34,777 bases of DNA, taken from assembly GCA_017442445.1 (NCBI GenBank), contig JAFRZS010000042.1, forward strand, positions 1 through 34,777, read 5' to 3'. This DNA is from Clostridia bacterium (GTDB lineage: Bacteria > Bacillota > Clostridia > Oscillospirales > Acutalibacteraceae). A program made the position numbers and the translations under genes. The notes beneath the pieces are model-generated. The model was not told the DNA's origin and made no database searches. It worked only from the letters and a program-made list of their open reading frames with translations. This document shows, piece by piece, positions 6,989 through 31,912 of this stretch (the stretch's first letter is position 1; each line of letters opens with the position of its first letter).

Positions 6989-7016
6989 ATAAATACCTCC
7001 ACATCTTCCTGAAAAC

Positions 7017-7129: not shown

Positions 7130-7157
7130 TTGATGTTTTTTAAAAAAGTAATATACT
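7130..7157 (+). promoter_or_regulatory. possible promoter for the miniprotein gene
   Basis: TTGATG (7130-7135), 16-nt spacer, TATACT (7152-7157). Confidence 0.35.
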
Positions 7158-7186
7158 TAAAGTAAAGAAATAAAGGAGGAAAAAGC

Positions 7187-7342: not shown

Positions 7343-7351
7343 AATTTTAAT

Positions 7352-7380
7352 TTGACACAAATCAAAACTATTGGTATAAT
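7352..7380 (+). promoter_or_regulatory. consensus sigmaA promoter for the lipoprotein gene
   Basis: TTGACA (7352-7357), exactly 17 nt, TATAAT (7375-7380). Both hexamers are perfect. Confidence 0.7.
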
Positions 7381-7447
7381 CTTCTCGAAAGTGAAGAGGA
7401 TTACACTTTTTATAATACCGACAGATTTTTGATTGAGGTGTAATATT

Positions 7448-8101: not shown

Positions 8102-8125
8102 TTGTATATGCAGAAATTTTTTTAA

Positions 8126-8152
8126 AGGACAGGGAAACCTGTCCTTTTTTTA
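8126..8152 (+). terminator. rho-independent terminator
   Basis: AGGACAGG GAAA CCTGTCCT hairpin followed by a T-run. Confidence 0.8.
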
Positions 8153-8153
8153 T

Positions 8154-8182
8154 TTGACGGATAGAAAAATATTTGATATAAT
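8154..8182 (+). promoter_or_regulatory. sigmaA promoter for the NSS transporter gene
   Basis: TTGACG (8154-8159), 17-nt spacer, TGa-TATAAT extended -10 (8174-8182). Confidence 0.6.
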
Positions 8183-8212
8183 TTCAGCAGTTTATTTTTA
8201 GGAGAGTTTAAT

Positions 8213-9610: not shown

Positions 9611-9616
9611 AAAAAT

Positions 9617-9649
9617 ATCAGCCGACACAGAATTTCTGTGTCGGCTGAT
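9617..9649. terminator. bidirectional terminator between convergent genes
   Basis: 14-bp perfect stem ATCAGCCGACACAG / CTGTGTCGGCTGAT with a 5-nt loop. An A-run lies upstream and T-rich sequence downstream. Confidence 0.8.
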
Positions 9650-9665
9650 TTGCTTATAAGGTATT

Positions 9666-12395
9666 TTAATAGTTGAAAACTTTTGAACCGCTTGTTACTG
9701 ACTGGTCAATATATGCTTCGTAGTTAGTAACTGCGCTTATGGACTCTTCATCCATTATATCAACAACACCGTCGCCGTTTACATCAGCTGCCATGAACAA
9801 ATACTCATAATCAAAATAATCGAATATTTCAAAGTTGGCAATCGCTGAGAAATAGGTTGTATCTTCTGTATCAACTATGCCGTCGCCGTTATAGTCACCG
9901 AAGATAACTATTGTGTATTCAGCGATAACTTTTTGTGTTGCTGTGTTTGTTACAGTCACTACTGTACCTGTACCGATAACATCGTTACTGAAGCTTACCT
10001 CAGCAGAGCCTACTGTTTTGATGTAATTCATAATTGTTGTCTTATCAAGACCTTCGCTGAGACCGTAGATAAGATTCTTTTCGTTATCAATTGTAGTTGC
10101 AACACCGTCTTCAACCTCAACTGAAGCCACGCTTAATTCGTTTACACTTTCGGGCATATTGCTTGAGTAATTTCCGGGTGTGTAATTAGCATTGATTTCG
10201 GATCTTGAGAGAATGACCTGAGGAGAACCTGATGTATCACCAAGACCTACATTTCCGTTTTCGGGAGTAAATCTGATTTCGTCAAGATTGACTATTGCGC
10301 CGCCTGCTGACTGTGAGAAGTTGAATTTAATTTCTCGGACATCCTCTAACTTACTGTTGTTATAAGTTGAACCGCTTGTCTTTCCGTTTTTAAAGAGTGT
10401 GTTAAGGTCAAAAGTGATAGTAACCCAGGGGCAATTTTCAGGAACAGTAATTCCTGTCTTTCCTGTTGCGGTACAAGCGGGAGAATAGTAGGTTTCTAAA
10501 ATTGTATCGCCAACATAGAAATCAATACTTTCAATTCTGAATGAAACGGGAAGACCGTTGCTGATATGGAAAGTCATTGTACTGTAATCGCTGTAATCCG
10601 TATCAATTTCCGCAAAGGGCACATCTTCGTCGCCATCATCAAATGTAAGAACAGGCTCGATAGAAAATTCTTTTCTTGTTGTGAAAATCTGAAGTCCGAA
10701 ATCACCGCTGTAAGCTGCTTCCTCTTTAAATGAAGTGTCAGCGCCTGACCAAGTGTAATAAAACAATGCGTCACCGTCAGTGTCACCGTAGTTATGGAAT
10801 GTTGTACCTTCCTCACAGTCTAACCATTCCTTATCTCTCCAGAAATGAGGACTGTCGATATATTTAAGGAAGAACGGACAAACAGGCATCAGAAGCTTGT
10901 TGTCTTTGGTTGAATATAGGTTTGCGTTCACGTTATTTGTGCTGTATGCATAGGCTGCTGAAACAGGTGCTGTAACACCCTTAGCCCATACTCTGACGGT
11001 GTTTTTATTAACTATTTCTGCTTCAGCAGGAACATAAACACCGTTTGCGGCACAGATTGAAAATCCGTTGATAAGTGTAGAAGGTGATGAAAGACCGCTA
11101 CCTACATTCTCATCAAAAGTGATATAAATATCTGAACCTGAAACTTGATAGCTTTCGGGCTGTGCAATAGATGTCGGACCGTTACCGCCGTAAACAAGAC
11201 CTTCTGTACACTCTGCCATTCTTACACCGATTTCCTGCTTGGTTTTAGGATGAATGAATCCCATATCGGGCAGATATGATAAGTTAACATCATAGTTGCT
11301 GACAACAGCTCTTTTGTCGGGTTCATGGTCAACAAAGTTTGCAAGAGCATTGTTCCACATAGCAAACTCAAGACCTGTAGTAGAATATTTAAAGGGAGCG
11401 AGTTGAGTGCACACCAAAGGCATAAGCTCGTTTTCGTAGCCGAAAAGCTCACTGTAGGAACGCTGTAACAAATCAAGCTGTTCTGCGTACTGCTTCGGAG
11501 TTGTTTTATTGAAAAGATCTGATTCGCCCTGATACCAGATCATACCTGCAGGTCTGAAATGTCTTGTCGGATAAATCTTTACATTGTAGTTGGAAGTCAT
11601 ATTCTGGTAACGGTTAGGAGTAGTTGTGCTCCATGCAGCTTCAGTGATATAAGTTCCTTTAGAAGTATATGTAGATTTAACATTAGGACATCTGTCAATA
11701 GCATCTCTTGAGAGCCATGAATTGATTGTTGAACCGCCGAGTGCATTGTGCATAATACCTACGGGCATATCAAGCTTTTTCTGAAGCTTCTCTGCGAAGA
11801 AATATGCAACAGCACTCAGGCTGTAGATTTTTTCATGTTCGCCGGTAACCCACTGAGTACCTTGAATATCATTCTGCGGATTGAGAGGAGTAGCATCTGC
11901 TGAGCCGTTATATTTAGGTGTGCCGGGAACTATTAAAGCTCTGATCCATTTGGAGAGCTTCTGACCTGCCTCATACATTTTAGAGCCGGTAGCTTCCTGC
12001 TTTAATGTATATGCCATGTTACTCTGACCGCTTGCAAGCCACAATTCGCCGAATACAACTTTTTCAAGTCGGCTGAACTCTGTACCGTCAACTGAAAGAA
12101 CAACGGTGTATTCTTCATAGCTTCCTGCGGGTGCGGGGAAATAAACTTCAAACAAACCGTTTTTTGCATACGAGGAGTATTTTCTTACGAGAGTGTTTGC
12201 AGAATCATAAAGTTCTGCAGTGATTTTTGCTCCTGTTGTTGCTGTACCTGCAAAAATCGCTTTTTCATTTTGCTGGAACAGCATTGAGTCTCCGTATATT
12301 CCGTAAAGCGATGCGCTTGAGGCTGCATAAGCCATAGGAATAATGCTGAGAGTAAGGACAATGCTTAAAAGAATTGAAATTGCTTTTTTGAACAT
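9666..12395 (-). CDS. secreted multidomain carbohydrate O-acetylesterase (SASA / sialate-O-acetylesterase-like domain) with C-terminal dockerin
   Basis: Signal peptide MFKKAISILLSIVLTLSIIPMAYA|AS. SASA-family blocks LASGQSNM and IWYQGESD. Long beta-rich middle region. Two dockerin Ca loops at the C-terminus. AAGGAGG RBS. Confidence 0.9.
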   Translation of the reverse strand: MFKKAISILLSIVLTLSIIPMAYAASSASLYGIYGDSMLFQQNEKAIFAGTATTGAKITAELYDSANTLVRKYSSYAKNGLFEVYFPAPAGSYEEYTVVLSVDGTEFSRLEKVVFGELWLASGQSNMAYTLKQEATGSKMYEAGQKLSKWIRALIVPGTPKYNGSADATPLNPQNDIQGTQWVTGEHEKIYSLSAVAYFFAEKLQKKLDMPVGIMHNALGGSTINSWLSRDAIDRCPNVKSTYTSKGTYITEAAWSTTTPNRYQNMTSNYNVKIYPTRHFRPAGMIWYQGESDLFNKTTPKQYAEQLDLLQRSYSELFGYENELMPLVCTQLAPFKYSTTGLEFAMWNNALANFVDHEPDKRAVVSNYDVNLSYLPDMGFIHPKTKQEIGVRMAECTEGLVYGGNGPTSIAQPESYQVSGSDIYITFDENVGSGLSSPSTLINGFSICAANGVYVPAEAEIVNKNTVRVWAKGVTAPVSAAYAYSTNNVNANLYSTKDNKLLMPVCPFFLKYIDSPHFWRDKEWLDCEEGTTFHNYGDTDGDALFYYTWSGADTSFKEEAAYSGDFGLQIFTTRKEFSIEPVLTFDDGDEDVPFAEIDTDYSDYSTMTFHISNGLPVSFRIESIDFYVGDTILETYYSPACTATGKTGITVPENCPWVTITFDLNTLFKNGKTSGSTYNNSKLEDVREIKFNFSQSAGGAIVNLDEIRFTPENGNVGLGDTSGSPQVILSRSEINANYTPGNYSSNMPESVNELSVASVEVEDGVATTIDNEKNLIYGLSEGLDKTTIMNYIKTVGSAEVSFSNDVIGTGTVVTVTNTATQKVIAEYTIVIFGDYNGDGIVDTEDTTYFSAIANFEIFDYFDYEYLFMAADVNGDGVVDIMDEESISAVTNYEAYIDQSVTSGSKVFNY
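9690..9899 (-). other. dockerin module (two EF-hand-like repeats) of the esterase
   Basis: GDYNGDGIVDTEDT ... DVNGDGVVDIMDEE, two DxNxDGxxDxxD loops about 38 residues apart within the last 77 residues. Confidence 0.8.
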
Positions 12396-16355: not shown

Positions 16356-17612
16356 TTATAACATATTTTTGTTTTTTATGAATGTTTTTCTTGTGTAGAT
16401 AATTGCAATAATTATAAGAGTAAAGCTTATAAATGAAAACAATTGCTGTCCGTAGATATTAAAGCCTAAGAAAGTATTGCCGTTATTCTGAATGTGAGCA
16501 AGTAACGGACTGGTTGCTATTGTTGTAAGTGAACCGAGGGCTCCTGAAAACGCCTGACATACAGCAAGTGAATTTGCTCGTTTGTCGGGGTCTGCATAAT
16601 CGAAAACAAGATTCATTGTACCGCTGCTGATACCGCCCATTGAAATGTAATGGAAAATATAATAAAGCAAAACCATAATTTTTCCGTTACTCGGAGTTGC
16701 AAACATAAAGCACAAAAAGCTGAGTCCGAAGAAAATGAAACACTTTTCCATCATAACAGCAAATGAATGTCTGTCGGCGTATCTGCCCCAGAAACGAGAA
16801 ACGAACATACGGACAAAGCTTCCGACAATATGAACGATGGAAATAAATTTCAGACTGAAACCAAGCTCACTTATCTGATATGTTCCGTAAAAGGATGTCG
16901 AGAAATTTGAAACATGATAAAGAATTAAAACAAACGCAACCTTCAGAACATTTTTATTTGAAAAGGTATCACGGATAGTGGTAGAAAGCTTTTGTTTGTC
17001 AGGCTGAGGAATGTCGGGCTCAACGGTGAGAAACATTGATATTGTATGAAGTATCATTATTACAAAAATGACAACAGCGGATATAATAAATGCGGTTTTT
17101 ATTTCACCCTTTTGAGCGTAAGCGTCAATCACCGCACTCATAGTGAACTGGAATATCATACCGACCAGAAGGGAAATGATTTCCTTGTTGGCAGTAAATC
17201 TGCCTCTTTCGTTATCTTGAACCAAGGACATCATCCATGTCAGTTTTTTCGGATGAGCTGTATAGTAAACGATATAGGCTGTAAAGATTGCAATTATAAA
17301 CAGTGCGCCTTTAAAAGGCTTGTTAGAAAATGAAAGCGGAATAACATACAATGACAAAAACAGAAGCTGATTTATAATACTCAGGACAATAACAAAATTT
17401 TTCATTTTCTTTCTTTGAATGAACATTGAAAAAAGCTGAAAAAGAGCACCGAGTGAAATGAATGAAGTTACGATACCCGTAACGCTGTCGGATATACCTA
17501 AATTTTTTGTAAGCGTTGCAAGAAAAGATGTGCCGACTAAAATTGATATTAAATATTCAAGCGCCGCTTCCGCATTATACATCGCACGGCTGAGCTTTAA
17601 TTTTTTATCCAT
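16356..17612 (-). CDS. MFS-type transporter (418 aa, about 12 TM)
   Basis: Hydrophobicity pattern of 6+6 helices with a central loop (TVEPDIPQPDKQKLSTTIRD). GAGGTG RBS. Divergent from the hydrolase operon. Confidence 0.85.
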   Translation of the reverse strand: MDKKLKLSRAMYNAEAALEYLISILVGTSFLATLTKNLGISDSVTGIVTSFISLGALFQLFSMFIQRKKMKNFVIVLSIINQLLFLSLYVIPLSFSNKPFKGALFIIAIFTAYIVYYTAHPKKLTWMMSLVQDNERGRFTANKEIISLLVGMIFQFTMSAVIDAYAQKGEIKTAFIISAVVIFVIMILHTISMFLTVEPDIPQPDKQKLSTTIRDTFSNKNVLKVAFVLILYHVSNFSTSFYGTYQISELGFSLKFISIVHIVGSFVRMFVSRFWGRYADRHSFAVMMEKCFIFFGLSFLCFMFATPSNGKIMVLLYYIFHYISMGGISSGTMNLVFDYADPDKRANSLAVCQAFSGALGSLTTIATSPLLAHIQNNGNTFLGFNIYGQQLFSFISFTLIIIAIIYTRKTFIKNKNML

Positions 17613-17634
17613 TGTTTCACCTCAAATCCTTAAG

Positions 17635-17663
17635 ATAATATCATCAATATAAAATAATTGCAA
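17635..17663 (-). promoter_or_regulatory. sigmaA promoter for the MFS gene
   Basis: On the minus strand: TTGCAA (17663-17658), 17-nt spacer ending in TGa, TATTAT (17640-17635). Confidence 0.5.
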
Positions 17664-17715
17664 TATTTTTTTGAATTTTGCAGATACTATTTTTAAAAAG
17701 CAAAGGAGAAAGAAC

Positions 17716-18150
17716 ATGATAGAACAAGATACAATAAAATTATTACGCGAATGTGATGCGGGAGTTAAGATGGGAGTATCCTCAATTGATGATGTTCTGA
17801 AATATGTAAAGAGTGAGGCGTACAGAAATTTTCTTCTTGACTGCAAAAAGGAACATGAACAATTAGACCGCGAAATTCAGGAACAGCTTGACAAATTTAA
17901 TGACGAAGGCAAAAATCCTAATCCGATGGCAAAGGGAATGTCCTGGATGAAAACCAATATCAAAATAACATTAGATGCTTCAGACAGCACGATTGCAGAT
18001 TTGATGACAGACGGTTGCAACATGGGAGTAAAATCGTTAAACAGATATCTCAATGAGTATAAAGCGGCTGATGAGTTTTCAAAAGACATTTGCAAAAGGC
18101 TTATAAATCTTGAAGAAAAACTGACAATTCAGTCAAGAAAATTTTTATAA
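17716..18150 (+). CDS. hypothetical all-helical cytoplasmic protein (144 aa)
   Basis: AAAGGAGA RBS precedes ATG 17716; the track start at 17671 has no RBS. The sequence is helix-rich and charged, with no recognisable motif. Confidence 0.7.
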   Translation: MIEQDTIKLLRECDAGVKMGVSSIDDVLKYVKSEAYRNFLLDCKKEHEQLDREIQEQLDKFNDEGKNPNPMAKGMSWMKTNIKITLDASDSTIADLMTDGCNMGVKSLNRYLNEYKAADEFSKDICKRLINLEEKLTIQSRKFL

Positions 18151-18156
18151 ATACAG

Positions 18157-18185
18157 TTCACATATCGCCTGTTTTGTGCTACAAT
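18157..18185 (+). promoter_or_regulatory. sigmaA promoter for the hydrolase operon
   Basis: TTCACA (18157-18162), 17-nt spacer, TGc-TACAAT extended -10 (18177-18185). It is bracketed by the inverted repeat CCTGTTTTGT / ACAAAAACAGG. Confidence 0.5.
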
Positions 18186-18218
18186 TACACTAATAGTACA
18201 AAAACAGGTGGTTTTATT

Positions 18219-19787
18219 ATGAGCAATTTCTTCTCTAAGTACGAATATCTTGAATCTGCAGGAAATGAAATTTTTACAATCATATTTCGACCGACGGAAG
18301 AAGGAAAATTTCCGACAGTAATTTTCCGCAGTCCTTATGTCTGGGAATATGAAAAAAAGACAGAGGAAGAGGTACTTGAAATTTATAAAAAGGAATATAC
18401 TCCGTGGGTTGAAAGAGGTTACGCAGTAATCTGTCAGCACTGCAGAGGTACAGGAAAAAGCAAGGGAGATTTTTTACCGTTCATCTGTGACAGAGAAGAC
18501 GGACTCAATGTTCAGGAGTGGGTAAGACATCAGAGCTTTTACAACGGTGAAATTTATCTTGTTGGCGGCAGTTATACAGCTTGTGTTCATTTTGAAACAG
18601 CACCGTTTGCTGATGACATCAAAGGCGTTATTACAACCGTTCACGACAGTGACAGATATAATTTCAGCTTCCGCAACGGAAACTTCAAAAAGAATTTATT
18701 GGGCTGCTGGTATGTTGACTTTTACAAGGCAAAATCGGGAATGAAAAAGAATAAATCTCCCGATATGTTTGAAATGGTACCCCTTAAAGATTTTACGGAA
18801 ACAGTATTTGGTGAGAAGAATGAAGGTCTGGGTGAATTTTTCAGAAATCCCGATCCGAAAAGTGATTTCTGGGAAACACAGCTCGGCGGTAAATATCCGA
18901 AACACGCACTTGAAAATATAGATATTCCTGTTCTTATAACGACTGCGTTTTACGATATTTTTGCAGGCGGAGTTTTTGATATGTGGTATAACATGGACGA
19001 AAGAGCAAAGAAAAAATCTGCGCTGATCGTAACTCCTTATAACCATGGTGACGGATATGATGAAAATACCGTTAAATTTGAAAACGGAGCAAGAATTGAA
19101 AAATTCGGTGAACACTACTTAATTGATTGGATAGATTATGTAAGAGGCAAAAAAGAACCTTATGTTCCTCTCGGCAAGGTTACATATTACAGAGCATTTG
19201 AAAACGGCTGGACAACAGACGATTTTGATTTTGCTACAGGCAGAATGGATATTACAATTGGCGACAAGGATGTAACATATAAATATGACCCCGATAATGC
19301 ACCGTCATTCCTCGGCGGATTATCCTGCGGCTTCGGCGGATCGGTTTTTCAGGAAGAACCTTATAAGAGAGATGATATCGTAACTGTTTATACAGAGCCT
19401 TTCTCGGAAGATGTTTTCGTAAAAGGTAAAATGTCGGCAAAGCTCAAAGTAAAATCCGATTGCGAGGACACAGCATTTTATATAAGATTAAGCCTTACAA
19501 AAGACGGCAGAGATTTAGGAATAAGAGATGATATAACTTCTCTGTGCTTCCAGTTGGGTGACTATGAACCGAACAGCGAAGTGACACTTGATTTTACATT
19601 TGATGAACACGCATTCGCAATTAAAAAAGGTGAGAAGCTGAGAATTGATATTTCTTCAGCTGACAAAGAGCATTACATTCCGCACACAAACACAAAGGGC
19701 GCATTACACGAGCGCAATTCAAAGAAAATTGCAAACAATACGGTATATTTAAGCGAGTCTGTTCTGACTTTACCGATAGAAGAATAA
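18219..19787 (+). CDS. CocE/NonD family (peptidase S15 / COG2936 acyl-esterase) alpha/beta hydrolase, paralog 1
   Basis: Family pattern: short N-terminus, then FPTVIFRSPY (oxyanion Tyr), GYAVICQHCRG..S.G, nucleophile elbow GGSYTA, YDIF Asp, PYNHGD His. The C-terminal PepX_C-like jelly roll carries VKGKMSAKLKVKSDCEDTAFYIRL...GEKLRIDISSAD. AGGTGG RBS precedes ATG 18219. Confidence 0.9.
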   Translation: MSNFFSKYEYLESAGNEIFTIIFRPTEEGKFPTVIFRSPYVWEYEKKTEEEVLEIYKKEYTPWVERGYAVICQHCRGTGKSKGDFLPFICDREDGLNVQEWVRHQSFYNGEIYLVGGSYTACVHFETAPFADDIKGVITTVHDSDRYNFSFRNGNFKKNLLGCWYVDFYKAKSGMKKNKSPDMFEMVPLKDFTETVFGEKNEGLGEFFRNPDPKSDFWETQLGGKYPKHALENIDIPVLITTAFYDIFAGGVFDMWYNMDERAKKKSALIVTPYNHGDGYDENTVKFENGARIEKFGEHYLIDWIDYVRGKKEPYVPLGKVTYYRAFENGWTTDDFDFATGRMDITIGDKDVTYKYDPDNAPSFLGGLSCGFGGSVFQEEPYKRDDIVTVYTEPFSEDVFVKGKMSAKLKVKSDCEDTAFYIRLSLTKDGRDLGIRDDITSLCFQLGDYEPNSEVTLDFTFDEHAFAIKKGEKLRIDISSADKEHYIPHTNTKGALHERNSKKIANNTVYLSESVLTLPIEE

Positions 19788-19808
19788 AAAGAAATTGGTG
19801 GTATTATT

Positions 19809-21440
19809 ATGAAAAATTCTCAGGAAATTTACATTACCGATAAAGCGATGAACAGCAGTGACTGTAATATCGTCAAGAAAGATTTTTCTGTAACTTATGA
19901 GTATTTGGAGTCAGAAGGGTACAGGCTTTTCACAGCAATACTCAAGCCTTCAGAGGAAGGGAAATTTCCTACGGTTATCATGCGCAATCCGTATCTTGAA
20001 ATGTATGAAAACTCAACCGAACAGGAAGTACTTGACGTATATCGCAAAGACTATGAACACTGGATAAACAGAGGCTATGCCGTAGTTTATCAGCACTGCA
20101 GAGGTGAGGGCAAAAGTGAAGGAGAGTTCATTCCGTTTATTTATGAAAATACAGACGGCAGAAATCTTCAGGAATGGATAAGACATCAGAACTTCTATAA
20201 CGGAGAAATGTATCTTGTCGGCGGAAGCTACACCAATATCGTTCATGTTGAAACCGCACCGTTTGCAGATGATATCAAGGGTATAATTATTTCTGTAAAT
20301 GACTGCAACAGATATAATATGATTTACAGAAACGGTGTGTTTAAAAGAGGTCTTTTCGGCGGCTGGTATATTGATATGTACAAGTCAAAGTCACACATGA
20401 AGAAAAACAGAAGTGACAAGATGTTTGAAATAGTACCGTTCAAAGATTTACCTGAAACAGTGTTCGGTGAAAAAGATGAATATATGTTGCAGTTTATAAA
20501 AAATCCCGACCCGAAAAGTGATTTCTGGAATACAATGCTCGGCGGAGTTCATATAAAAGAAGCGGTCAGAAATGAAAATGTTCCCGTATTGCTTCACACA
20601 GCATTCAATGACATTTTCCTTGGCGGAAATTTTGATATGTGGGACAGCCTGACAGATACTTTAAAAGCGAAATCAGCATTTCTTTTGTCGCCCTATGACC
20701 ACGGAGATGTATGCTCCGAGTTCGGATATCATTTTGAAAACGGTACCTGCAAAGAACAGTTCGGTAACGATTTCCAGATAGATTGGATTGACTATTTAAG
20801 AGGCAAGAGAGAAGCTCCGTTTGAACCGGGCAAGGTTACATATTTCAGATCATTTGAAAACGGCTGGACTACCGATGAATTTGAAAGAGGAAAAAATAAA
20901 ATTGATATCACAGTCGGAGAAGGCGAAGCTTCATACAAATATGACCCCGATAATGCACCCAGCTTTGCAGGAGGATTGTCGTGTAATTTCGGAGGCTCAC
21001 TTTATCAGAAGGAGCCTTATCAGAGAGATGACATAATTACCGTCTATACAGATGAATTTTCAGAAGATGTTTTTGTAAAAGGTAAAATGAAAGCAAAACT
21101 CAAAGTAAAATCAGACTGCGAGGATACAGCATTTTATGTCAGAATCAGCCTTACAAAAGACGGTAGGGATTTAGGTATCAGAGATGATATAAGAACTTTG
21201 TGCTTTGAACTCGGTGATTATGAACCGAACAGTGAAGTCACACTTGACTTTACATTTGATGACCACGCTTTCCTTATCAGGAAAGGTGAAAAATTAAGAA
21301 TCGATATAACATCGGCAGACAGAATTCATTATGTGCCGCACACAAATACAAAAGGTCCGTACTATGAATGCACTCAAAAGAAAATTGCGAATAATACGGT
21401 ATATCTTTCAGAATCGGTTTTAACATTACCGACAGAATAA
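19809..21440 (+). CDS. CocE/NonD family alpha/beta hydrolase, paralog 2 (about 24-aa N-terminal extension)
   Basis: Same motif set (MRNPY, GGSYTN, NDIF, PYDHGD, PepX_C-like C-terminus). GGTGG RBS. 21-nt gap from paralog 1. Confidence 0.9.
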   Translation: MKNSQEIYITDKAMNSSDCNIVKKDFSVTYEYLESEGYRLFTAILKPSEEGKFPTVIMRNPYLEMYENSTEQEVLDVYRKDYEHWINRGYAVVYQHCRGEGKSEGEFIPFIYENTDGRNLQEWIRHQNFYNGEMYLVGGSYTNIVHVETAPFADDIKGIIISVNDCNRYNMIYRNGVFKRGLFGGWYIDMYKSKSHMKKNRSDKMFEIVPFKDLPETVFGEKDEYMLQFIKNPDPKSDFWNTMLGGVHIKEAVRNENVPVLLHTAFNDIFLGGNFDMWDSLTDTLKAKSAFLLSPYDHGDVCSEFGYHFENGTCKEQFGNDFQIDWIDYLRGKREAPFEPGKVTYFRSFENGWTTDEFERGKNKIDITVGEGEASYKYDPDNAPSFAGGLSCNFGGSLYQKEPYQRDDIITVYTDEFSEDVFVKGKMKAKLKVKSDCEDTAFYVRISLTKDGRDLGIRDDIRTLCFELGDYEPNSEVTLDFTFDDHAFLIRKGEKLRIDITSADRIHYVPHTNTKGPYYECTQKKIANNTVYLSESVLTLPTE

Positions 21441-21453
21441 TAAAGGTGATTTT

Positions 21454-23028
21454 ATGAGTGAATTTTTCTCGGAATACAAGTATCTTGAATCATCAGGCGG
21501 AGGACTTTTTACGGTGATATTAAAGCCGTCAGTACAGGGTAAATTTCCGACTGCAATTTTCAGGAATCCGTATGTTCAGCTGTTTGAAAAAACCGAAGAA
21601 GATGAGATAGTAAAGCTTTATCTCAAAGAGATGACACCGTGGCTTGAAAACGGATATGCCGTTGTAATGCAACACTGCAGAGGTCAGGGAAAAAGCGAGG
21701 GAGATTTTATTCCCTTTACATACGAAAGAGAAGACGGACTCAATCTTCAGAAATGGGTAAGACAACAGCCGTTTTATAACGGAGAAATTTTCCTTGTGGG
21801 TATCAGCTATACAAGTCTTGTGCATTGTGATACCGCACCTTATGCCGACGACATAAAAGCGATGATTTCTTCCGTTCACGATTGCAACAGATATAATTTT
21901 GTTTACCGTAACGGCGTATTTAAAAACGGACTTTTCGGTGAGTGGTATTCAAAAAATTATAAAGCGAAAACAATCAAAAAAAGAAACTACAATCCTGACA
22001 CATCATTTAAGGTTTTACCGTTTAAAAATTTTTCAGAAGCTGTTGTGGGTGAAGACAGTGAACTCTTTACAACTATATTGACAGCGTCCGACCCCGACCA
22101 CGAATTCTGGTCAACTCTGCAAGGCGGAAAATATACAAGAACTGCGGTCAGGGATATAAATGTTCCGGTGTTGCTGACAACGGGCTTCAATGATATTTTT
22201 GTCGGTGGAATTTTTGAGATGTGGAGAAACATCAGAAACAAAGACGCTAAAGAAAAGAGTGCTCTTGTTGTATCTCCGTATGACCATGTTGATGATTTCA
22301 GTAAGGATAATTCTATCTGCTTTGAAAACGGAAAACGCGGAGAACAATTCGGTTGGAGTTATGAAATTGATTGGTTGAATTATGTAAGAGGACTTCGTCC
22401 CTCTCCGTTTGAAAACGGTAAGGTTACCTATTACAGAATGTTTGAAAATAAATGGGCAACTGATAATTTTGAATACGGAAAAAAGAATGTGAATATCACT
22501 CTTGGTGATAAAGAAGTTACATATAAATATGACCCTGAAAATGCGCCGTCATTTCTCGGCGGATTGTCCTGTAATTTCGGTGGCGGAATGTTTCAGAATA
22601 AACCGTATCAGAGAGATGATGTAATTACAGTTTATACGGATAAGTTTTCGGAAGACACCTTTGTGAAGGGTAAAATGAAAGCAAAGCTTAAAGTAAAATC
22701 CGATTGCGAGGATACTGCATTTTATATCCGTATAAGTATCGCAAACGGAGAAAAAGATTTCGGAATAAGAGATGATATAAAAACATTGTGCTTTGAATTA
22801 GGTGACTATGTTCCGGATACGGAAGTATTCCTTGATTTCACCTTTGATGAACACGCATTTCTTGTTAAAAAGGGTGAGAAATTAAGGATAGATATTGCTT
22901 CTGCAAATGATCTTTATTTTCTCAATCACACGAATTTCAAAGGTGCTTATTACGAACAGACAAAAACAAAAACCGCAAATAATACAGTATATCTTTCAGA
23001 GTCGGTTTTAACATTACCGACAGAATAA
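21454..23028 (+). CDS. CocE/NonD family alpha/beta hydrolase, paralog 3
   Basis: Same motif set (FRNPY, GISYTS, NDIF, PYDHVD, PepX_C-like C-terminus). AAGGTGA RBS. 13-nt gap from paralog 2. Confidence 0.9.
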   Translation: MSEFFSEYKYLESSGGGLFTVILKPSVQGKFPTAIFRNPYVQLFEKTEEDEIVKLYLKEMTPWLENGYAVVMQHCRGQGKSEGDFIPFTYEREDGLNLQKWVRQQPFYNGEIFLVGISYTSLVHCDTAPYADDIKAMISSVHDCNRYNFVYRNGVFKNGLFGEWYSKNYKAKTIKKRNYNPDTSFKVLPFKNFSEAVVGEDSELFTTILTASDPDHEFWSTLQGGKYTRTAVRDINVPVLLTTGFNDIFVGGIFEMWRNIRNKDAKEKSALVVSPYDHVDDFSKDNSICFENGKRGEQFGWSYEIDWLNYVRGLRPSPFENGKVTYYRMFENKWATDNFEYGKKNVNITLGDKEVTYKYDPENAPSFLGGLSCNFGGGMFQNKPYQRDDVITVYTDKFSEDTFVKGKMKAKLKVKSDCEDTAFYIRISIANGEKDFGIRDDIKTLCFELGDYVPDTEVFLDFTFDEHAFLVKKGEKLRIDIASANDLYFLNHTNFKGAYYEQTKTKTANNTVYLSESVLTLPTE

Positions 23029-23043
23029 AGCGAGGTTTTTATA

Positions 23044-24984
23044 ATGAGAAAACGCCAGGTACATCTTGATTTTCATACCAACGAGCTTTTGCCCGTGGGA
23101 GAAAAATTTTCAAAAGAACAGTTCAAGGAAGCTTTAAAGGCAGGTCATGTTAATTCAATAACTGTTTTTTCAAAGTGTCACCACGGATGGTCATATCATC
23201 CGACCGAGGTCAACGAAATGCACCCGACACTTAAATTTGATTTGCTCGGAGCACAGCTTGAGGCTTGTAAAGAGGCGGGGGTAAATGCACCTGTTTATAT
23301 CTCCGCAGGTCTTGATGAAAAAGAATACAGAAGACACCCCGAATGGCATTGGGTAAGTCCCGAAGAAGGCAGATACGAAAGACATCTGAAGGAAGTGCGT
23401 TTTCATTTCCTTTGCTTTAATACAGGATATCTTGATTTGTTGTGCAGACAGATTGAGGAGGTTATGCAGAAATATAATCCCTGTGGAATTTTTCTTGATA
23501 TTATAGCAGCAAGGGAGTGCTGCTGCGAAAGCTGTAAAGCTGATATGAAAAAATTGGGACTTGATGTAAACGATAAAGAGGACCGTAAAAAGTTTTCATA
23601 TACCGTACTTGAAAAATATCTCAATGCCGCCAATGCTTCTGTCAGAAAATACAGCAGTACAACAACAATTTTTCACAACACGGGACATATTCCCAAGGGC
23701 GATTATGATTTCATAGAAAAGAATACTCACCTTGAGCTTGAAAGTTTACCCACAGGCGGTTGGGGTTATGACCATTTCCCGCTGTCAGCCGCATATGCCA
23801 GAACTCTCAAAGATACTGAGTTCTTAGGCATGACAGGTAAATTTCATCAGGGTTGGGGAGAATTCGGCGGCTATAAGCACCCCAACGCACTGATTTATGA
23901 AACCTCTCTGAGTATTGCAAACGGCGCAGGTTGTTCAATCGGTGATCAGATGCACTCCTTGGGTGAAATGAATATGGCAACATATAATCTTATCGGAAAG
24001 GCATATTCTGTTGTAGAAGAAAAAGAGCCTTGGATTGACGGTGCTGTAAATGTTGCGGATATCGCTGTTTTAAGTCAGGAATCTGTAACAGGTAACCGTG
24101 ATTCTATGGGTGATGTCGGTGCAAACAGAATGTTGCTTGAAAATAATTATCTCTATAATTTCATTGACAAGAGAGCGGATTTTTCAAAATACAGGCTTCT
24201 GATTTTACCCGATGTATCAGACTTTGATGACGAAACAACCGAAAAAATTATAAGCTATGCAAAGTCAGGCGGTAAGATTATAGCGAGTGGCAAATCTCTC
24301 ATAAAAGAAGGAAAATTCATCCTTGATATCGGAGCAGAATTTAAGGGTGAAAATGAATTTAATCCCACATATTTAATTCCCTGTTACGAAACAGTAAACG
24401 GCGTAACAGAATATATAATGCGCTGTGATTTTAATAAATTTGAAGCAAGAGATTGTGAAGTTGTAGCAAAAATGCAGAATCCTTATTTTAACAGGACACT
24501 TGAACATTTCTGTTCACATATGCACGCACCGAACAATCCGGATGAAACCTTCCCTGCCACAGTAATTAAGAACAATATTGCATACATTGGCTGGAATATT
24601 TTTGAAGCGTATGCTGAGCTCGGTCACCTTTGCTTTAAAGAACTTTTCACATATATCATCAAAAGATTGATGGGCGACGAAACAACTGTTATAGCATCGG
24701 TACCCGATAAAGCTGTTGTGACTTATACAAGACAGGAAAAGGAAAAGAGAAATATTCTCCACCTTCTCTATGCGCACACAACACTAAGAGGAAAAAATAC
24801 AGAGGTTATTGAAGATACAGTACCTCTTTACAATGTAAAATGCAGTGTAAAATGTTTGTCAAAGCCTTCAGAAATAATGCTTGTACCTCAGAATCAGAAA
24901 ATTGAATTTGAGTACAACTCAGGCAGAGCGGAATTTGTTGTGCCTTGTGTGGAAATTCATCAGATGATAGAAATAAATGACTGA
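23044..24984 (+). CDS. GHL6-type putative glycoside hydrolase (TIM barrel plus GH42-like trimerisation-type domain), uncharacterised family
   Basis: The N-terminus RQVHLDFHTNE...VNSITVFSKCHHGWSYHPT matches my recollection of the 'hypothetical glycosyl hydrolase 6' signature. 646 aa, no signal peptide, 15-nt gap from paralog 3. Confidence 0.7.
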   Translation: MRKRQVHLDFHTNELLPVGEKFSKEQFKEALKAGHVNSITVFSKCHHGWSYHPTEVNEMHPTLKFDLLGAQLEACKEAGVNAPVYISAGLDEKEYRRHPEWHWVSPEEGRYERHLKEVRFHFLCFNTGYLDLLCRQIEEVMQKYNPCGIFLDIIAARECCCESCKADMKKLGLDVNDKEDRKKFSYTVLEKYLNAANASVRKYSSTTTIFHNTGHIPKGDYDFIEKNTHLELESLPTGGWGYDHFPLSAAYARTLKDTEFLGMTGKFHQGWGEFGGYKHPNALIYETSLSIANGAGCSIGDQMHSLGEMNMATYNLIGKAYSVVEEKEPWIDGAVNVADIAVLSQESVTGNRDSMGDVGANRMLLENNYLYNFIDKRADFSKYRLLILPDVSDFDDETTEKIISYAKSGGKIIASGKSLIKEGKFILDIGAEFKGENEFNPTYLIPCYETVNGVTEYIMRCDFNKFEARDCEVVAKMQNPYFNRTLEHFCSHMHAPNNPDETFPATVIKNNIAYIGWNIFEAYAELGHLCFKELFTYIIKRLMGDETTVIASVPDKAVVTYTRQEKEKRNILHLLYAHTTLRGKNTEVIEDTVPLYNVKCSVKCLSKPSEIMLVPQNQKIEFEYNSGRAEFVVPCVEIHQMIEIND

Positions 24985-24998
24985 CAGGAGAAAAAACA

Positions 24999-27095
24999 AT
25001 GGATATTAAAATTGCAAGAAAAAGAGCAGAAGAACTTGTAAATCAGATGACCGCAGAAGAAAAAATGTCACAGCTTTTATATAATTCTCCTGCCATTGAA
25101 AGATTAGGTATTAAAGACTATAACTGGTGGAATGAAGCTTCCCACGGTGTTGCAAGAGCAGGTGTGGCAACAGTTTTTCCCCACGCTATTGCATTGGCTT
25201 CAACATTTAATCCGGAACTTATAAACACAGTTGCAGATGCAATATCAACAGAAGGAAGAGCAAAGTATAACAAGAGTATTGAGTTTGGTGACAGAGATAT
25301 TTTCAAGGGGCTTACATACTGGGCTCCTAACATAAATATATTCAGAGATCCCCGTTGGGGTAGAGGTCAGGAAACCTTTGGCGAAGACCCGTATCTTACA
25401 GCAATTTTAGCTGCAGAATTTATTGACGGAATACAGGGTGACGGAGAATTTTTAAAAGCCGCCGCCTGTGCAAAGCATTATGCGGTACATTCAGGTCCCG
25501 AAAGATTGCGCCATGAATTTGATGCAAAAGCAACAGAAAAAGATTTGTGGGAAACATATCTTCCTGCATTTGAATACACAGTTAAAAACGGTGTTATCGG
25601 TGTTATGGGTGCATACAACCGTACAAACGGAGAGCCTTGCTGTGCAAGTAAAAGGCTTATCGGTGAAATTCTCAGAGGTCAGTGGGGCTTTGAAGGTTAT
25701 TTCGTTTCTGACTGCGGAGCGATTGCAGATATTTCAGAGCATCACAAAGTTGTAGGAACCAAAAAAGAGGGTGCGGCTGAAGCACTCAAAAACGGTTGTA
25801 ACTTAAACTGCGGAGATACATACAAATATCTTATTGATGCATATGAAGAAGATCTTATTGACGATGATGATATCACAAATGCTGCAGTAATTTTATACAC
25901 AGTTCGTATTATGCTCGGCGAATTTGAGGAAAACCGTCCCTATTCCGATATCCCATATTCAAAGGTTGACTGTAAAGAACATAAGGAATTAAATCTCAAA
26001 GCGGCTAAAGAAAGTCTTGTGCTTTTAAAGAATGATAACTACTTACCGCTTAAAGATAATCAGCCGAAAAAAATTGCCGTTGTAGGCCCCAATGCTATGT
26101 CAAGAGAGGTGCTTGAAGGCAACTATAACGGTCATGCTTCAGAATATATAACAGTTGCAGACGGTGTGCGCAGAGTGTTTACCGACTCTGATATTATTGT
26201 TGCAACAGGTTCAAATATCTATGTTGAACAGCTCAATTCATGGGACGGCGCGAGATATCTTCTGAGCGAAGGTCTTGCGGCGGCATCAGAAGCAGATTTA
26301 ACAATTTTGTGCTTAGGTCTTAACAGACATTTTGAAGGTGAAGATACAGGTCACGATGACGATTTCTCAGATTACGGCGACAGAAAAACCCTCAACCTTC
26401 CCAAAACACAGATGAAACTTGCAGAAGCAGTTTGCGATGTTGCAAAAAATCTTGTGGTTGTAGTTATGTGCGGCAGTGCTACAGATGTCGGAGAAAAAGT
26501 AAGAAATCATGCAAAGGCAATTATTCACGGCTGGTATCCCGGTGCAGTGGGCGGTCTTGCGATTGCAGAGTTGATTGCAGGTGAATATTCACCCATGGGC
26601 AGATTGCCGCTTTCATTCTATCATGCAGACGGAAAAATGCCTTCATTTGAAGACTATAATATGGAAGGCAGAACATACCGATTCACAGATGAAAATATTC
26701 TCTATCCCTTCGGCTACGGTCTTACATATACAACTGTTGAATACAAAGATTTCAAAGTATTGTCGGCAGACGAAAATGAAATCTCTGTTGAGGTCACAAT
26801 GACAAACACAGGTGATTATGATACAGTTGAAAAAATGCAGATTTATTCTCACTACGATGACAGCAGAACAAAAACACCTTTATATCAGCTTTGCAAAATT
26901 GAGGCTGTTGAGATTAAATCAAACGAAACAAAAACAGTAACAACAACAATTGACCGCCACTGGATAAAGGCAGTTTTAGAAGACGGTGTGAGAGTGACAC
27001 CTGACGGAAAAATCACACTCTATGTCGGAGGCCACCAGCCTGACAAACTCAGCGAAAATCTCGCAGGTTATCCGTGCCTAAAGATTACATTATGA
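24999..27095 (+). CDS. glycoside hydrolase family 3 beta-glucosidase/beta-xylosidase (BglX-like)
   Basis: GH3 blocks: WWNEASHGV, FRDPRWGRGQETFGEDP, KHYAVHSGPE, nucleophile region GYFVSDCGAI, C-terminal sandwich and Fn3-like domains. AGGAGA RBS. 14-nt gap from the GHL6 gene. Confidence 0.92.
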   Translation: MDIKIARKRAEELVNQMTAEEKMSQLLYNSPAIERLGIKDYNWWNEASHGVARAGVATVFPHAIALASTFNPELINTVADAISTEGRAKYNKSIEFGDRDIFKGLTYWAPNINIFRDPRWGRGQETFGEDPYLTAILAAEFIDGIQGDGEFLKAAACAKHYAVHSGPERLRHEFDAKATEKDLWETYLPAFEYTVKNGVIGVMGAYNRTNGEPCCASKRLIGEILRGQWGFEGYFVSDCGAIADISEHHKVVGTKKEGAAEALKNGCNLNCGDTYKYLIDAYEEDLIDDDDITNAAVILYTVRIMLGEFEENRPYSDIPYSKVDCKEHKELNLKAAKESLVLLKNDNYLPLKDNQPKKIAVVGPNAMSREVLEGNYNGHASEYITVADGVRRVFTDSDIIVATGSNIYVEQLNSWDGARYLLSEGLAAASEADLTILCLGLNRHFEGEDTGHDDDFSDYGDRKTLNLPKTQMKLAEAVCDVAKNLVVVVMCGSATDVGEKVRNHAKAIIHGWYPGAVGGLAIAELIAGEYSPMGRLPLSFYHADGKMPSFEDYNMEGRTYRFTDENILYPFGYGLTYTTVEYKDFKVLSADENEISVEVTMTNTGDYDTVEKMQIYSHYDDSRTKTPLYQLCKIEAVEIKSNETKTVTTTIDRHWIKAVLEDGVRVTPDGKITLYVGGHQPDKLSENLAGYPCLKITL

Positions 27096-27110
27096 TTAAG
27101 AGATAAAAAA

Positions 27111-27134
27111 AATCGCACCTTTAAAGGTGCGATT
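27111..27134. terminator. bidirectional terminator (ends the hydrolase operon and pncB)
   Basis: AATCGCACCT TTAA AGGTGCGATT stem flanked by AAAAAAA upstream and TTTTTT downstream. Confidence 0.85.
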
Positions 27135-27137
27135 TTT

Positions 27138-28583
27138 TTAATTATTCTTTATCATTTGTTGTTTTTTGTCCCAGAGTTTTTGTGAGAGGTCAACATAGTA
27201 GTTGTGCGGATTTTCAAAACGGAGAACTTCTTCCCACATTGTGTCTATCTGCTCACAGCAGTAGTTTCTTATGTCTTCAATTGAGGGAGATTTTGCGATA
27301 TATTTTCCGTTTTCAAAAATCTTTTTAAGCAAAGGTCTTGCTACGAAGTTTGTAATCGTTTTCTTCTTCCAAGTGTAATCGGGATCAAAAATTTCAAGCG
27401 GTTTTGTGTCGTCAATTTCTTCATCGTGGCAGGTGATTAAATCTGCAATTGCCTTGCCGCTTTCTCTGGAGAAAAGACGCCATACTTTTTTATAATCGGG
27501 AGTTGAGATTTTTGCGACATTATCGGATAGCTTTATTTTCGGAATAATCTTTCCGTCTTTTTCTATTGCACAGAGCTTATAAACTCCGCCGAGTACGGGC
27601 GAAGATGAAGATGTAATAAGTCTTTCGCCTACACCGAAAAGGTCAACTGCCGCACCCTGCATGAGCATATCTCTTATGATGTATTCATCAAGCGAGTTTG
27701 ATGCAACGATTTTACAATCGGGGAAACCTGCTTCGTCAAGCATTTTTCGGGCTTTTTTGGAAAGATAGGTTATGTCACCGCTGTCTATTCTGACAGCTTT
27801 AGGTCTGTGACCGCCGGGGACAAGAATTTTATTGAATACCTCAATAGCATGGGGAATACCCGACTCAATAGTGTGATAGGTATCAACAAGCAAGGTGCAG
27901 TCATCGGGATATTTTTTTGCATATGCAGTAAATGCGTCAAGCTCTGTGTCAAACATCTGAACCCAGCTGTGTGCCATTGTGCCTGAAACGGGAATACCGA
28001 AATGTCTTCCGCAGAGAGTATTTGAGGTTGCAGAACAACCGCCGATATATGCGGCTCTGCCTCCGTAGATTGCCGCATCAAAGCTGTGCGCACGGCGTGA
28101 ACCGAATTCAAGAACATCTCTGCCTTCTGCAGCACGGACAATCCTGTTGGCTTTTGTTGCAATAAGACTCTGATAGTTTATGCAGAGTAAAACCATTGTT
28201 TCTATAAACTGAGCCTGAAGAAGAGGACCTCTTACCGTGATTATAGGTTCACCCGGGAAAATGGGTGTACCTTCGTCAACTGCCCATACGTCACAGGAAA
28301 ATTCAAAATTTCTGAGATAATCAAGAAATTTTTCATCAAATTCCAATGATCTCAGATATTCTATATCTTCTTCCTCAAACTTGAGGTTTTTGAGATAATC
28401 AACAAGCTGATGAAGTCCTGCCATCAGAACAAATCCGCCGTTGTCGGGAATTTTTCTGAAAAACATATCAAAGTAGGCAACAGTGTTTTCCATTGAATTT
28501 GAAAGATAGCCGTTTGCCATAGTGATTTCATAAAAATCGGTAAGCATGGCGAGATTTCTGTCATTTATCATTTGGTTTTCCAT
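27138..28583 (-). CDS. pncB: nicotinate phosphoribosyltransferase
   Basis: NAPRT N-terminal signature NLAMLTDFYEITMANGY, plus SGTMAHSWVQ and EFGSRRAH blocks. 481 aa. Confidence 0.93.
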   Translation of the reverse strand: MENQMINDRNLAMLTDFYEITMANGYLSNSMENTVAYFDMFFRKIPDNGGFVLMAGLHQLVDYLKNLKFEEEDIEYLRSLEFDEKFLDYLRNFEFSCDVWAVDEGTPIFPGEPIITVRGPLLQAQFIETMVLLCINYQSLIATKANRIVRAAEGRDVLEFGSRRAHSFDAAIYGGRAAYIGGCSATSNTLCGRHFGIPVSGTMAHSWVQMFDTELDAFTAYAKKYPDDCTLLVDTYHTIESGIPHAIEVFNKILVPGGHRPKAVRIDSGDITYLSKKARKMLDEAGFPDCKIVASNSLDEYIIRDMLMQGAAVDLFGVGERLITSSSSPVLGGVYKLCAIEKDGKIIPKIKLSDNVAKISTPDYKKVWRLFSRESGKAIADLITCHDEEIDDTKPLEIFDPDYTWKKKTITNFVARPLLKKIFENGKYIAKSPSIEDIRNYCCEQIDTMWEEVLRFENPHNYYVDLSQKLWDKKQQMIKNN

Positions 28584-30505: not shown

Positions 30506-31912
30506 ATGAAAGCGTTTATGGGAAAGGATTTTTTGTTGAATAATGAGGTTGCATCGACATTGTATTTCAATGCGGCAGCACCGATGCCGATTTTTGATTG
30601 GCATTGTCATTTATCGGCAAAAGAAATTTATGAAAACAAAACTCCGAAGGATATAACAGAGTTATGGCTCGGCGGAGATCATTACAAATGGCGTGCTATG
30701 AGAAGCATGGGTATTGATGAAAAATATATCACAGGCGATGCTGACAGTTTTGAAAAATTCAAAGCATTTGCAAAGACACTTTCTTATGCAATCGGCAATC
30801 CGCTTTATCATTGGGCGCATCTCGAATTACAGAGATATTTCAATATCTATACACCTTTGACAGAGGCTACTGCAAGAGAAATTTTTGATGAAGCAAACAT
30901 GGCAATAATCACGGGCGGATTTACTCCGAGAGAGCTTATAACATCATCAAATGTTGTATGTCTTTGCACAACAGATGACCCGGCAGACACACTTGAATAT
31001 CATCAGAAATTAGCAGAAGATGACAGCTTCAAATGTAAAGTATTACCTGCATTCAGACCCGACAAGGCATTATATATAGAACAGGAAGCCTTTACACCGT
31101 GGCTTGAAAGTCTTGAAGCAGTTTGCGAAAAAGCTATAAATAATTTTGATGATTTTATTGATGCTTTAAATTCAAGAATTGAATTTTTTGATTCACTCGG
31201 CTGTAAGGCATCTGACTGTTCGCTTTCGTATGTTCCTTTCGCAGAAGCTGATAAAGACGAAATTAACAGCATCTTTATAAAGGGCAAAAATAAAGAAGCT
31301 CTTACAAAAGAAGAGCTTGATAAGTATCGCACATATATGATTCAGTTCTTTGCAGAAAAATATGCAGAGAAGAATTGGGTAATGGAACTCCACATCGGCG
31401 CTATGAGAAACAACAATACACTCATGTTCAATAAGTTAGGTCCCGATGCAGGTTTTGACTCAATTGATGACTGTAATATCGCAGTAGGACTTTCAAGATT
31501 CCTGGACAGTGTTGCAGTAAAAGGAAAGCTTCCGAAAACTGTTTTATTCAATCTCAATCCCAAGGACAATTATGTTCTCGGAACAATGCTTGGCAATTTC
31601 CAGAGCAGTGAATGTGCATCAAAAATTCAGTTCGGTTCTGCATGGTGGTTCAACGATAACCTTGACGGCATGATGACACAGATGAAAACACTTGCAAACC
31701 TCGGTGTACTCGGCAAGTTTATCGGAATGGTAACAGACTCAAGAAGCTTCTTATCTTATCCCAGACACGAATATTTCAGAAGAATTGTCTGCGCACTTAT
31801 AGGCGATATGGTAGTAAACGGACTTTATCCCTGCGATGTTGAAATGCTTTCTGAAATCGTAAGCGGAATTTCCTACAAAAACGCAAAAGATTATTTCGGT
31901 CTGGAGCTGTAA
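30506..31912 (+). CDS. uxaC: glucuronate (uronate) isomerase
   Basis: Aligns by eye along the N-terminus with E. coli UxaC: FLL...PIFDWHCHL, GDHYKWRAMR, IGNPLYHWAHLEL. 468 aa. Confidence 0.93.
   Translation: MKAFMGKDFLLNNEVASTLYFNAAAPMPIFDWHCHLSAKEIYENKTPKDITELWLGGDHYKWRAMRSMGIDEKYITGDADSFEKFKAFAKTLSYAIGNPLYHWAHLELQRYFNIYTPLTEATAREIFDEANMAIITGGFTPRELITSSNVVCLCTTDDPADTLEYHQKLAEDDSFKCKVLPAFRPDKALYIEQEAFTPWLESLEAVCEKAINNFDDFIDALNSRIEFFDSLGCKASDCSLSYVPFAEADKDEINSIFIKGKNKEALTKEELDKYRTYMIQFFAEKYAEKNWVMELHIGAMRNNNTLMFNKLGPDAGFDSIDDCNIAVGLSRFLDSVAVKGKLPKTVLFNLNPKDNYVLGTMLGNFQSSECASKIQFGSAWWFNDNLDGMMTQMKTLANLGVLGKFIGMVTDSRSFLSYPRHEYFRRIVCALIGDMVVNGLYPCDVEMLSEIVSGISYKNAKDYFGLEL

Follow-up and report, generated by a model that had tools for sequence, protein, structure and literature searches.

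A lineage-restricted putative operon combining three CocE/NonD hydrolases with predicted GH151 and GH3 glycosidases in an uncultured gut Clostridia bacterium

The alf-2 cluster of L. casei combines a permease of the major facilitator superfamily (MFS) and a fucosidase with a peptidase/amidase function acting on Fuc-alpha1,6-GlcNAc-Asn (PMC6960285), and in Bacteroides a GH3 beta-1,2-xylosidase acts together with fucosidases on plant N-glycans (PMC9522356). Enzymes of family GH151 cleave aryl-fucosides and the disaccharides Fuc-Gal and Fuc-GlcNAc and do not cleave larger glycans; in the family member ALfuk2, D154 is the nucleophile, E235 the acid/base and H503 a complementing His (PMC10154630). 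Here we describe a locus that can be compared with these systems. It lies in a 34,777-nt stretch of DNA (the window) from an uncultured Acutalibacteraceae-like (Oscillospirales) gut Clostridia bacterium, and it consists of three CocE/NonD (S15) serine hydrolase genes followed by genes for a predicted GH151 alpha-L-fucosidase and a predicted GH3 exo-glycosidase. All of its parts belong to known families, and their combination is undescribed in the literature searched, where queries linking CocE/NonD, PF02129 or COG2936 with glycoside hydrolases returned nothing relevant. A first-pass annotation of the same DNA had already called an operon of CocE/NonD enzymes and glycosidases undescribed, and we too found no paper on one in that literature.

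We tentatively propose that the locus is a lineage-restricted, young operon for the intracellular end-stage breakdown of small imported fucosyl and/or xylosyl glycoconjugates, with a substrate that we infer to be shared by its enzymes. This proposal, which we place somewhat short of an even chance, is drawn from the tight gaps between the genes, the lack of signal peptides, the intact catalytic residues of the three S15, GH151 and GH3 proteins, and the divergence of the S15 pockets. The CocE/NonD paralogs would split the ester or amide linkage that holds the non-sugar part of the conjugate, namely an acyl group, an aglycone, or an amino-acid or peptide stub. The GH151 enzyme would remove terminal alpha-L-fucose, and the GH3 enzyme would remove a terminal beta-xylosyl or beta-glucosyl residue. 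A stepwise order, with de-acylation preceding cleavage of the glycan, is possible, and comparative support for it extends no further than one genus-level lineage.

Anatomy of the predicted operon and its enzymes

The five genes are all on the forward strand. They encode CocE/NonD paralog a (522 aa, 18219-19787), paralog b (543 aa, 19809-21440), paralog c (524 aa, 21454-23028), the GH151 protein (646 aa, 23044-24984) and the GH3 protein (698 aa, 24999-27095). The gaps between them are 21, 13, 15 and 14 nt, and each gene is preceded by a purine-rich Shine-Dalgarno (SD) sequence (GGTGG, GGTGG, AGGTG, GAGG and AGGAG). A run of five co-directional genes with no gap above 21 nt is typical of operons and far exceeds what chance would give. 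A sigma-70-type promoter-like site with an extended -10 element (TTCACA-17-TGcTACAAT; 18157-18185, forward strand) scored 10/12 in a consensus scan. The region holds no excess of promoter-like matches overall (40, against 36.8 expected); this particular match falls in the sole sizeable upstream gap, and both of its hexamers are identical, base for base, in two close relatives, an Acutalibacteraceae metagenome-assembled genome (MAG; L001) and a Joint Genome Institute (JGI) metagenome contig (L002). At the other end, a predicted bidirectional intrinsic terminator (27106-27139), with a 15-bp stem, a 4-nt loop and T/A runs on both sides, is common to the operon and a convergent nicotinate phosphoribosyltransferase (NAPRTase) gene. 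Judging from this anatomy, the five genes are probably co-transcribed from one promoter to one terminator.

The open reading frame (ORF) coordinates, gaps, SD sequences, promoter-like site and terminal hairpin of the first-pass annotation were all recovered. Its family assignments and its cytoplasmic placement of the products were upheld by profile matches and by the N-termini: a signal-like hydrophobic N-terminal segment is absent in all six soluble products (the three S15 paralogs, GH151, GH3 and a 144-aa protein encoded just upstream). Its remark that the locus carries no regulator or ABC gene also holds, as we found neither within 16356-27134. An Rfam scan of the whole window returned no riboswitch or leader. 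A compositional signal of horizontal transfer was looked for and not seen: the GC content of the locus (0.37-0.42) resembles that of the rest of the window.

The three S15 paralogs match TIGR00976 (CocE_NonD) at 147-158 bits (158 for paralog a; cut-off 66.3), PF02129 (Peptidase_S15) at 104-118 bits (108 for paralog a; cut-off 23) and PF08530 (PepX_C) at 33-46 bits (46 for paralog a; cut-off 22.5). In a profile alignment, Ser118, Asp246, His276 and the oxyanion Tyr40 coincide with S117, D259, H287 and Y44 of CocE in all three paralogs, in agreement with their earlier assignment as CocE/NonD enzymes. The surrounding motifs pair as RNPY with RNPY, GGSY with GVSY, F(N/Y)DIF with WYDGF and PY(D/N)H with PWSH of CocE, and Y40, S118, D246 and H276 are invariant across 45 homologs. 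The AF2 model of paralog a (predicted local distance difference test score, pLDDT, 92.8; predicted template modelling score, pTM, 0.91) shows an alpha/beta-hydrolase core, a helical cap and a C-terminal beta jelly-roll. Its top Foldseek match is CocE (1JU3; template modelling (TM) score 0.80, E=1e-37, 20% identity), followed by alpha-amino-acid ester hydrolases (AEHs), the archaeal S15 aminopeptidase 4PF1 and PepX (1LNS). The paralogs are accordingly bona fide CocE/NonD hydrolases that are probably active, though remote from every characterised enzyme.

The segment that follows the catalytic Asp bears on the type of chemistry. In AEHs, the alpha-amino group of the substrate is anchored by an acidic pair that follows closely on the catalytic Asp. 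In the paralogs, D246 is followed by I-F-A/L/V, which is hydrophobic like the G-F-V of CocE, and F248 aligns with CocE F261; the AEH alignment ended before this segment. These hydrophobic residues, together with F248, lean towards an esterase-type acyl pocket.

The three paralogs share 61-66% pairwise identity (b and a, 66%; c and a, 61%). In a neighbour-joining tree they form a single clade, (c,(a,b)), and for every one of them an ortholog occurs in both L001 and L002. They arose by a lineage-specific tandem triplication, which predates the split from the L001 and L002 species, since each of the copies has its own ortholog there. Divergence among the paralogs is fastest in residues 121-280, which comprise the cap domain and the Asp/His loops and where identity falls to 0.72-0.82 of the family norm. 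A137, F139 and T249, each conserved at 95% or more in single-copy relatives, are occupied by a different residue in each paralog, and T249 adjoins F248. This pattern is consistent with diversification of the pocket, and possibly of specificity, among the paralogs. Gene conversion among them was considered and rejected: the same-codon fraction at identical residues is about 0.4-0.7 over the full length, and no clear converted tract is seen.

The GH151 protein, which carries the Pfam GHL6 domain and a GH42M-like domain, had been described as an orphan glycosidase. It is no orphan. Its match to ALfuk2 (6TVK; E=6.2e-186, 623 bits) runs over residues 1-644 of the query and 30-685 of the chain, and the equivalents of D154 (GIFLDI), E235 (HLELES) and H503 (CSHMHAP) are identical or conserved when the 29-residue tag offset of the chain is allowed for. 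By family, the protein is a clear GH151 alpha-L-fucosidase, its activity being predicted from this homology. The disaccharide-sized substrate range of GH151 enzymes fits a cytoplasmic finishing role, if the characterised members are a guide to this one.

The GH3 protein matches PF00933 (N-terminal GH3 domain, 140 bits), PF01915 (C-terminal GH3 domain, 161 bits) and PF14310 (Fn3-like, 35 bits). Its best NCBIfam match is Xyl3A (NF041776), whose 693 bits fall short of the 1250 set for an equivalog, and its nearest PDB matches are beta-xylosidases, such as 7VC6 at 6e-91. Inspection of motifs located KHY and FVSDCG, which we take to be catalytic motifs, the nucleophile Asp motif among them. The closest sequence matches suggest a beta-xylosidase-type specificity.

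Distribution of the arrangement and possible co-transcription without a shared substrate

Several observations weigh against a substrate shared by the five enzymes. The first concern the distribution of the arrangement. Paralog a has 901 relatives at E<=1e-10, mostly of 50-56% identity, from Clostridia/Oscillospiraceae MAGs. In a scan of one genome per species, in which the ORFs of 55 loci were probed with all window proteins, the full arrangement appeared at a single locus, that of the Acutalibacteraceae MAG GCA_045540355.1 (L001/L006, 84% identity). Look-ups in protein collections added the JGI metagenome contigs L002/L003 (76%) and L090, whose first S15 protein is identical to that of the window. 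The S15-GH151-GH3 combination is thus found only in the window's own lineage, at 76-84% amino-acid identity. The flanks are syntenic as well: the NAPRTase, M14-like peptidase and SASA esterase genes are retained in both L001 and L002, a HAD hydrolase gene in L001, and GH2 and GDSL genes in L002. Because the flanks are also conserved, the arrangement has been kept by descent, and conservation of the linkage is uninformative about selection. The recurrence check put forward in the first-pass annotation accordingly returned two close relatives with fully syntenic flanks and no independent genomes.

Further points of the same kind come from S15 genes outside this lineage. About 50 other Oscillospirales genomes carry the gene as a single copy. 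Within 10 kb of the other S15 loci we found no GH151, GH3, MFS or 144-aa homolog, except on the metagenome contig L069, where a homolog of the 144-aa protein lies upstream of S15. A metagenome scan with the paralog alignment yielded just 15 loci, L068 and L069 among them, and the arrangement was missing from all of these. When the two genes on each side were surveyed with Pfam at 37 non-redundant other loci, the 126 neighbours fell into 155 families; no family had more than three members, and no GH or MFS family was among the listed recurrent ones (at least two members). Neither this census nor clustering of flanking ORFs revealed a conserved S15 neighbour, and several of the homologs sit amid housekeeping genes. 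GH20 and Iso_dh neighbours of S15 are confined to one tight clade (L021-L033), in which an Iso_dh-type dehydrogenase gene lies upstream of S15 and a GH20 gene about 630 nt downstream on the same strand (L022, 5806-10901; L027, 8790-11545). At another locus (L008, 4520-8578), several putative esterase genes in a row (beta-lactamase-fold, GDSL, a 223-aa ORF and S15) precede a Mem_trans/SBF-type transporter gene.

The contexts of GH151 point the same way. Relatives of the window protein at 73-77% identity were examined in six other contexts, and in none of the six was an S15 or GH3 gene a neighbour; GH151 is thus promiscuous in its operon partners. It occurs with GH36 and GH95, beside GH78 and GlcNAc-processing genes, and amid cell-wall housekeeping genes. 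In two lineages it stands next to peptidase or esterase genes of folds unrelated to S15. At L092 (5269-9947; also L093), a GH151 homolog of 76-77% identity ends a cluster of two M42 aminopeptidases and a GNAT gene (M42-M42-GNAT), and at L091 (7046-10819) a homolog of the same identity range has a pectate-lyase-like beta-helix gene on one side and a gene for a patatin-like esterase on the other. These two cases offer anecdotal support for GH151 acting on glycoconjugates from which a non-sugar part must also be removed. Two properties of the operon itself must be added to the points against a shared substrate: a substrate-specific regulator, kinase or isomerase is not among its genes, and the paralogs share only about 20% identity with their nearest characterised S15 enzyme, so that either ester or peptide chemistry would fit.

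It is possible, then, that the genes are co-transcribed while the substrates of the S15 enzymes are peptides or small esters that have nothing to do with the sugars on which GH151 and GH3 work, the adjacency of the genes being an accident of genome compaction and of local duplication in one lineage. We regard this as the main alternative, though well short of an even chance. It would account for a widespread S15 subfamily that is single-copy at every other sampled locus but one (L068, where an independent S15 tandem pair, 6060-10402, directly follows a GFO/IDH/MocA oxidoreductase gene), that lacks conserved neighbours and that often occurs in housekeeping contexts. It would also account for GH151 partners that vary in every lineage examined, for a linkage kept by descent with no independent recurrence, and for a 3' end of the operon that is itself variable, as L002 has an additional 456-aa gene after GH3. 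That gene (L002, 18920-20290), which precedes the NAPRTase gene, has no family match and no meaningful PDB match. Against such an accident stands the fact that all five products are cytoplasmic hydrolases encoded 13-21 nt apart. That the triplicated genes were retained with intact triads over 16-24% protein divergence hints at selection on this locus, be it for dosage or for specificity, and GH151 also stands beside peptidase or esterase genes in two other lineages.

The outcome determines what the locus can teach. If the coupling is real, the end-stage breakdown proposed here would give a handle on a large CocE/NonD subfamily of gut Clostridia, about 20% identical to the enzymes studied, and on the natural substrates of GH151, and would bring an esterase or peptidase step of a new fold into herbivore-gut glycoconjugate catabolism. 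If it is not, the locus is no more than an operon whose enzymes all fall into known, readily annotated families and in which one gene was recently triplicated. A stronger claim would be that the CocE/NonD subfamily, or its triplicated copies, are glycoconjugate-specific de-acylases or de-peptidylases that work with GH151 and GH3. We consider this unlikely; if true, it would be the first carbohydrate-linked role of an S15/CocE enzyme, effectively a new carbohydrate-esterase-like family, and would provide the first physiological GH151 substrate.

Possible glycopeptide scavenging, flanking genes and the wider window

A more specific alternative is the scavenging of glycopeptides or glyco-amino acids, following a logic like that of alf-2. 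The S15 enzymes would be amino- or dipeptidyl-peptidases that trim the stubs of plant or host N-glycopeptides, GH151 would take the fucose of core Fuc-GlcNAc, GH3 would take the beta-1,2-xylose, and the nearby M14-like peptidase and GH2 enzyme would assist. X-Pro dipeptidyl peptidases of family S15 and the archaeal aminopeptidase are structural neighbours of the paralog a model (1LNS and 4PF1), GH151 enzymes accept Fuc-GlcNAc disaccharides, and on plant N-glycans in Bacteroides a GH3 beta-1,2-xylosidase acts with fucosidases and GH2. The operon of two M42 genes, GNAT and GH151 in another lineage, the M14-like and GH2 genes upstream in the window, and the herbivore-gut origin of related MAGs in database records would also fit. 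Nevertheless, the best structural and sequence match of the S15 proteins is the esterase CocE, and the catalytic Asp is followed by a hydrophobic I-F-A, comparable to the G-F-V of CocE, rather than by the acidic pair of AEHs. No glycosylasparaginase, endo-beta-N-acetylglucosaminidase (ENGase) or GlcNAc-processing gene is present among the window ORFs scanned. On balance we find glycopeptide scavenging distinctly improbable.

The 144-aa gene (17716-18150, forward strand), recovered from the ORF map and profile scans, encodes a predicted DUF2383-like/ferritin-like helical-bundle protein. The first-pass annotation had taken it for an orphan and counted it as part of the system. Its match to PF09537 (DUF2383) is at 18.5 bits (E=0.0023), below the cut-off of 30.8. 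More than 8000 homologs are found, unusually well conserved at 74-81% identity and many with a recorded PF09537 match. The AF2 model is a helical bundle (pLDDT 90.5), and the top Foldseek matches are Dps/YciF (TM 0.74-0.77, E about 1e-2). C13, C43, H47, C101 and several acidic residues are invariant in the family, which suggests a metal site. Elsewhere its homologs are stand-alone, and their surroundings are unrelated: HemN-like and NUDIX genes in one context, a flavodoxin-like gene on one side with GH2 on the other in a second, and a preceding GDSL gene in a third.

Between this gene and the operon lies a terminator-like hairpin (18164-18212, forward strand), with a minimum free energy (MFE) of -23.4 kcal/mol (z -4.15; none of 200 shuffles as stable), followed by UUUAUU. 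It is interleaved with the operon promoter: the 5' arm falls inside the spacer, the -10 element straddles the junction of 5' arm and loop, and the SD belonging to the first CocE/NonD gene lies within the 3' arm. Both L001 and L002 retain the outer stem, with a G:U and a U:G pair replaced by A:U and U:A. Read-through transcripts from the 144-aa gene would terminate at the hairpin or have this SD masked, and transcripts begun at the operon promoter would be without the 5' arm. The element looks like a terminator of the 144-aa gene that doubles as an insulator, a function suggested by its placement and fold. Since the hairpin intervenes, the family is ubiquitous and its contexts are unrelated, the 144-aa gene is probably a neighbour outside the operon, and its inclusion as an operon component was rejected on the same three grounds.

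The MFS transporter gene (16356-17612, reverse strand), identified in the same ORF map and profile scans, matches MFS_1 (PF07690, 65 bits) and MFS_2 (GPH-like, PF13347, 35 bits), both above their cut-offs; sequence searches gave no NCBIfam equivalog and no PDB relative. It is conserved beside the locus in the syntenic relatives only, and MFS_1 is not among the families that recur next to S15 homologs elsewhere. Uptake of the substrate by this transporter, which the first-pass annotation had presumed, is possible but unsupported: the link is one of adjacency, and in L001 the gene lies 37 nt upstream of the M14-like gene on its own strand. A 67-69-aa ORF is called between the MFS and 144-aa genes in L001 (9220-9429) and L002 (9226-9429) and is missing from the window. 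A model that brings together the MFS importer, the 144-aa protein and the stepwise removal of acyl or aminoacyl decorations from one oligosaccharide, as first suggested for this DNA, would draw on the GPH-like signature of the transporter, on its adjacency in all three syntenic genomes and on the diverged paralog pockets, but is very unlikely given a 144-aa gene of a ubiquitous stand-alone family that a hairpin separates from the operon, and an MFS gene that is not next to S15 homologs at other sampled loci and in L001 lies close to the M14-like gene instead.

The wider window contains further genes of interest. The segment 398-16141 is rich in glycan-related genes. Two of them encode GFO/IDH/MocA oxidoreductases, one a BNR sialidase-like protein, and another a SASA-domain esterase of 909 aa that carries a signal peptide and is present twice in L001. 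It also contains genes for a secreted metallophosphoesterase, an SNF-family symporter, GH2, the M14-like peptidase and a GDSL hydrolase; in L001, a small HTH_3 regulator gene lies between the SNF and M14-like genes. Two ORFs of the window are without family matches. One, of 635 aa (5111-7018, reverse strand), has no Pfam match at all, and the other, of 222 aa (7433-8101, forward strand), has a lipoprotein-like N-terminus (LFGCGD). Downstream of the operon, UxaC is encoded at 30506-31912.

Comparison with known systems

The alf-2 cluster (PMC6960285) resembles the present locus in that the gene of a cytoplasmic fucosidase lies close to genes for an MFS permease and for enzymes that hydrolyse non-glycosidic bonds, and in that a small imported glycoconjugate is the substrate, inferred in our case. 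In alf-2, the fucosidase belongs to GH29, and its gene is transcribed together with those for the permease, a glycosylasparaginase, an Asp decarboxylase, a sugar kinase and a regulator; the operon described here contains no such partners. Asparaginase, kinase and regulator domains, which define alf-2, are absent among the window ORFs scanned, and the MFS gene of the window has the opposite orientation and is set apart from the operon by an unrelated gene.

The plant N-glycan loci of Bacteroides (PMC9522356) share with this locus a xylosidase-type GH3 enzyme, a fucosidase and a nearby GH2 in a gut bacterium. The enzymes of those loci are periplasmic and SusC/D-linked, their fucosidases are of family GH29, and S15 enzymes are not involved.

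At the level of single enzymes the likeness is closer. The GH151 protein and ALfuk2 of Paenibacillus thiaminolyticus (6TVK) are homologous over their full length and agree in domain order, nucleophile, acid/base and complementing His; the organism and the gene context are different, and the activity of the window protein is a prediction. The S15 paralogs share with CocE of Rhodococcus (PDB 1JU3) the three-domain fold, the triad, the oxyanion Tyr and the GxSY nucleophile elbow, and F248 corresponds to F261 of the acyl pocket. They differ from it at about 20% identity, in the last Gly of GxSYxG, which is A, N or S in the paralogs, and in a QHCRG motif that is specific to their subfamily. They also differ in their genetic setting, as here the gene has been triplicated and placed in a putative operon with glycosidases.

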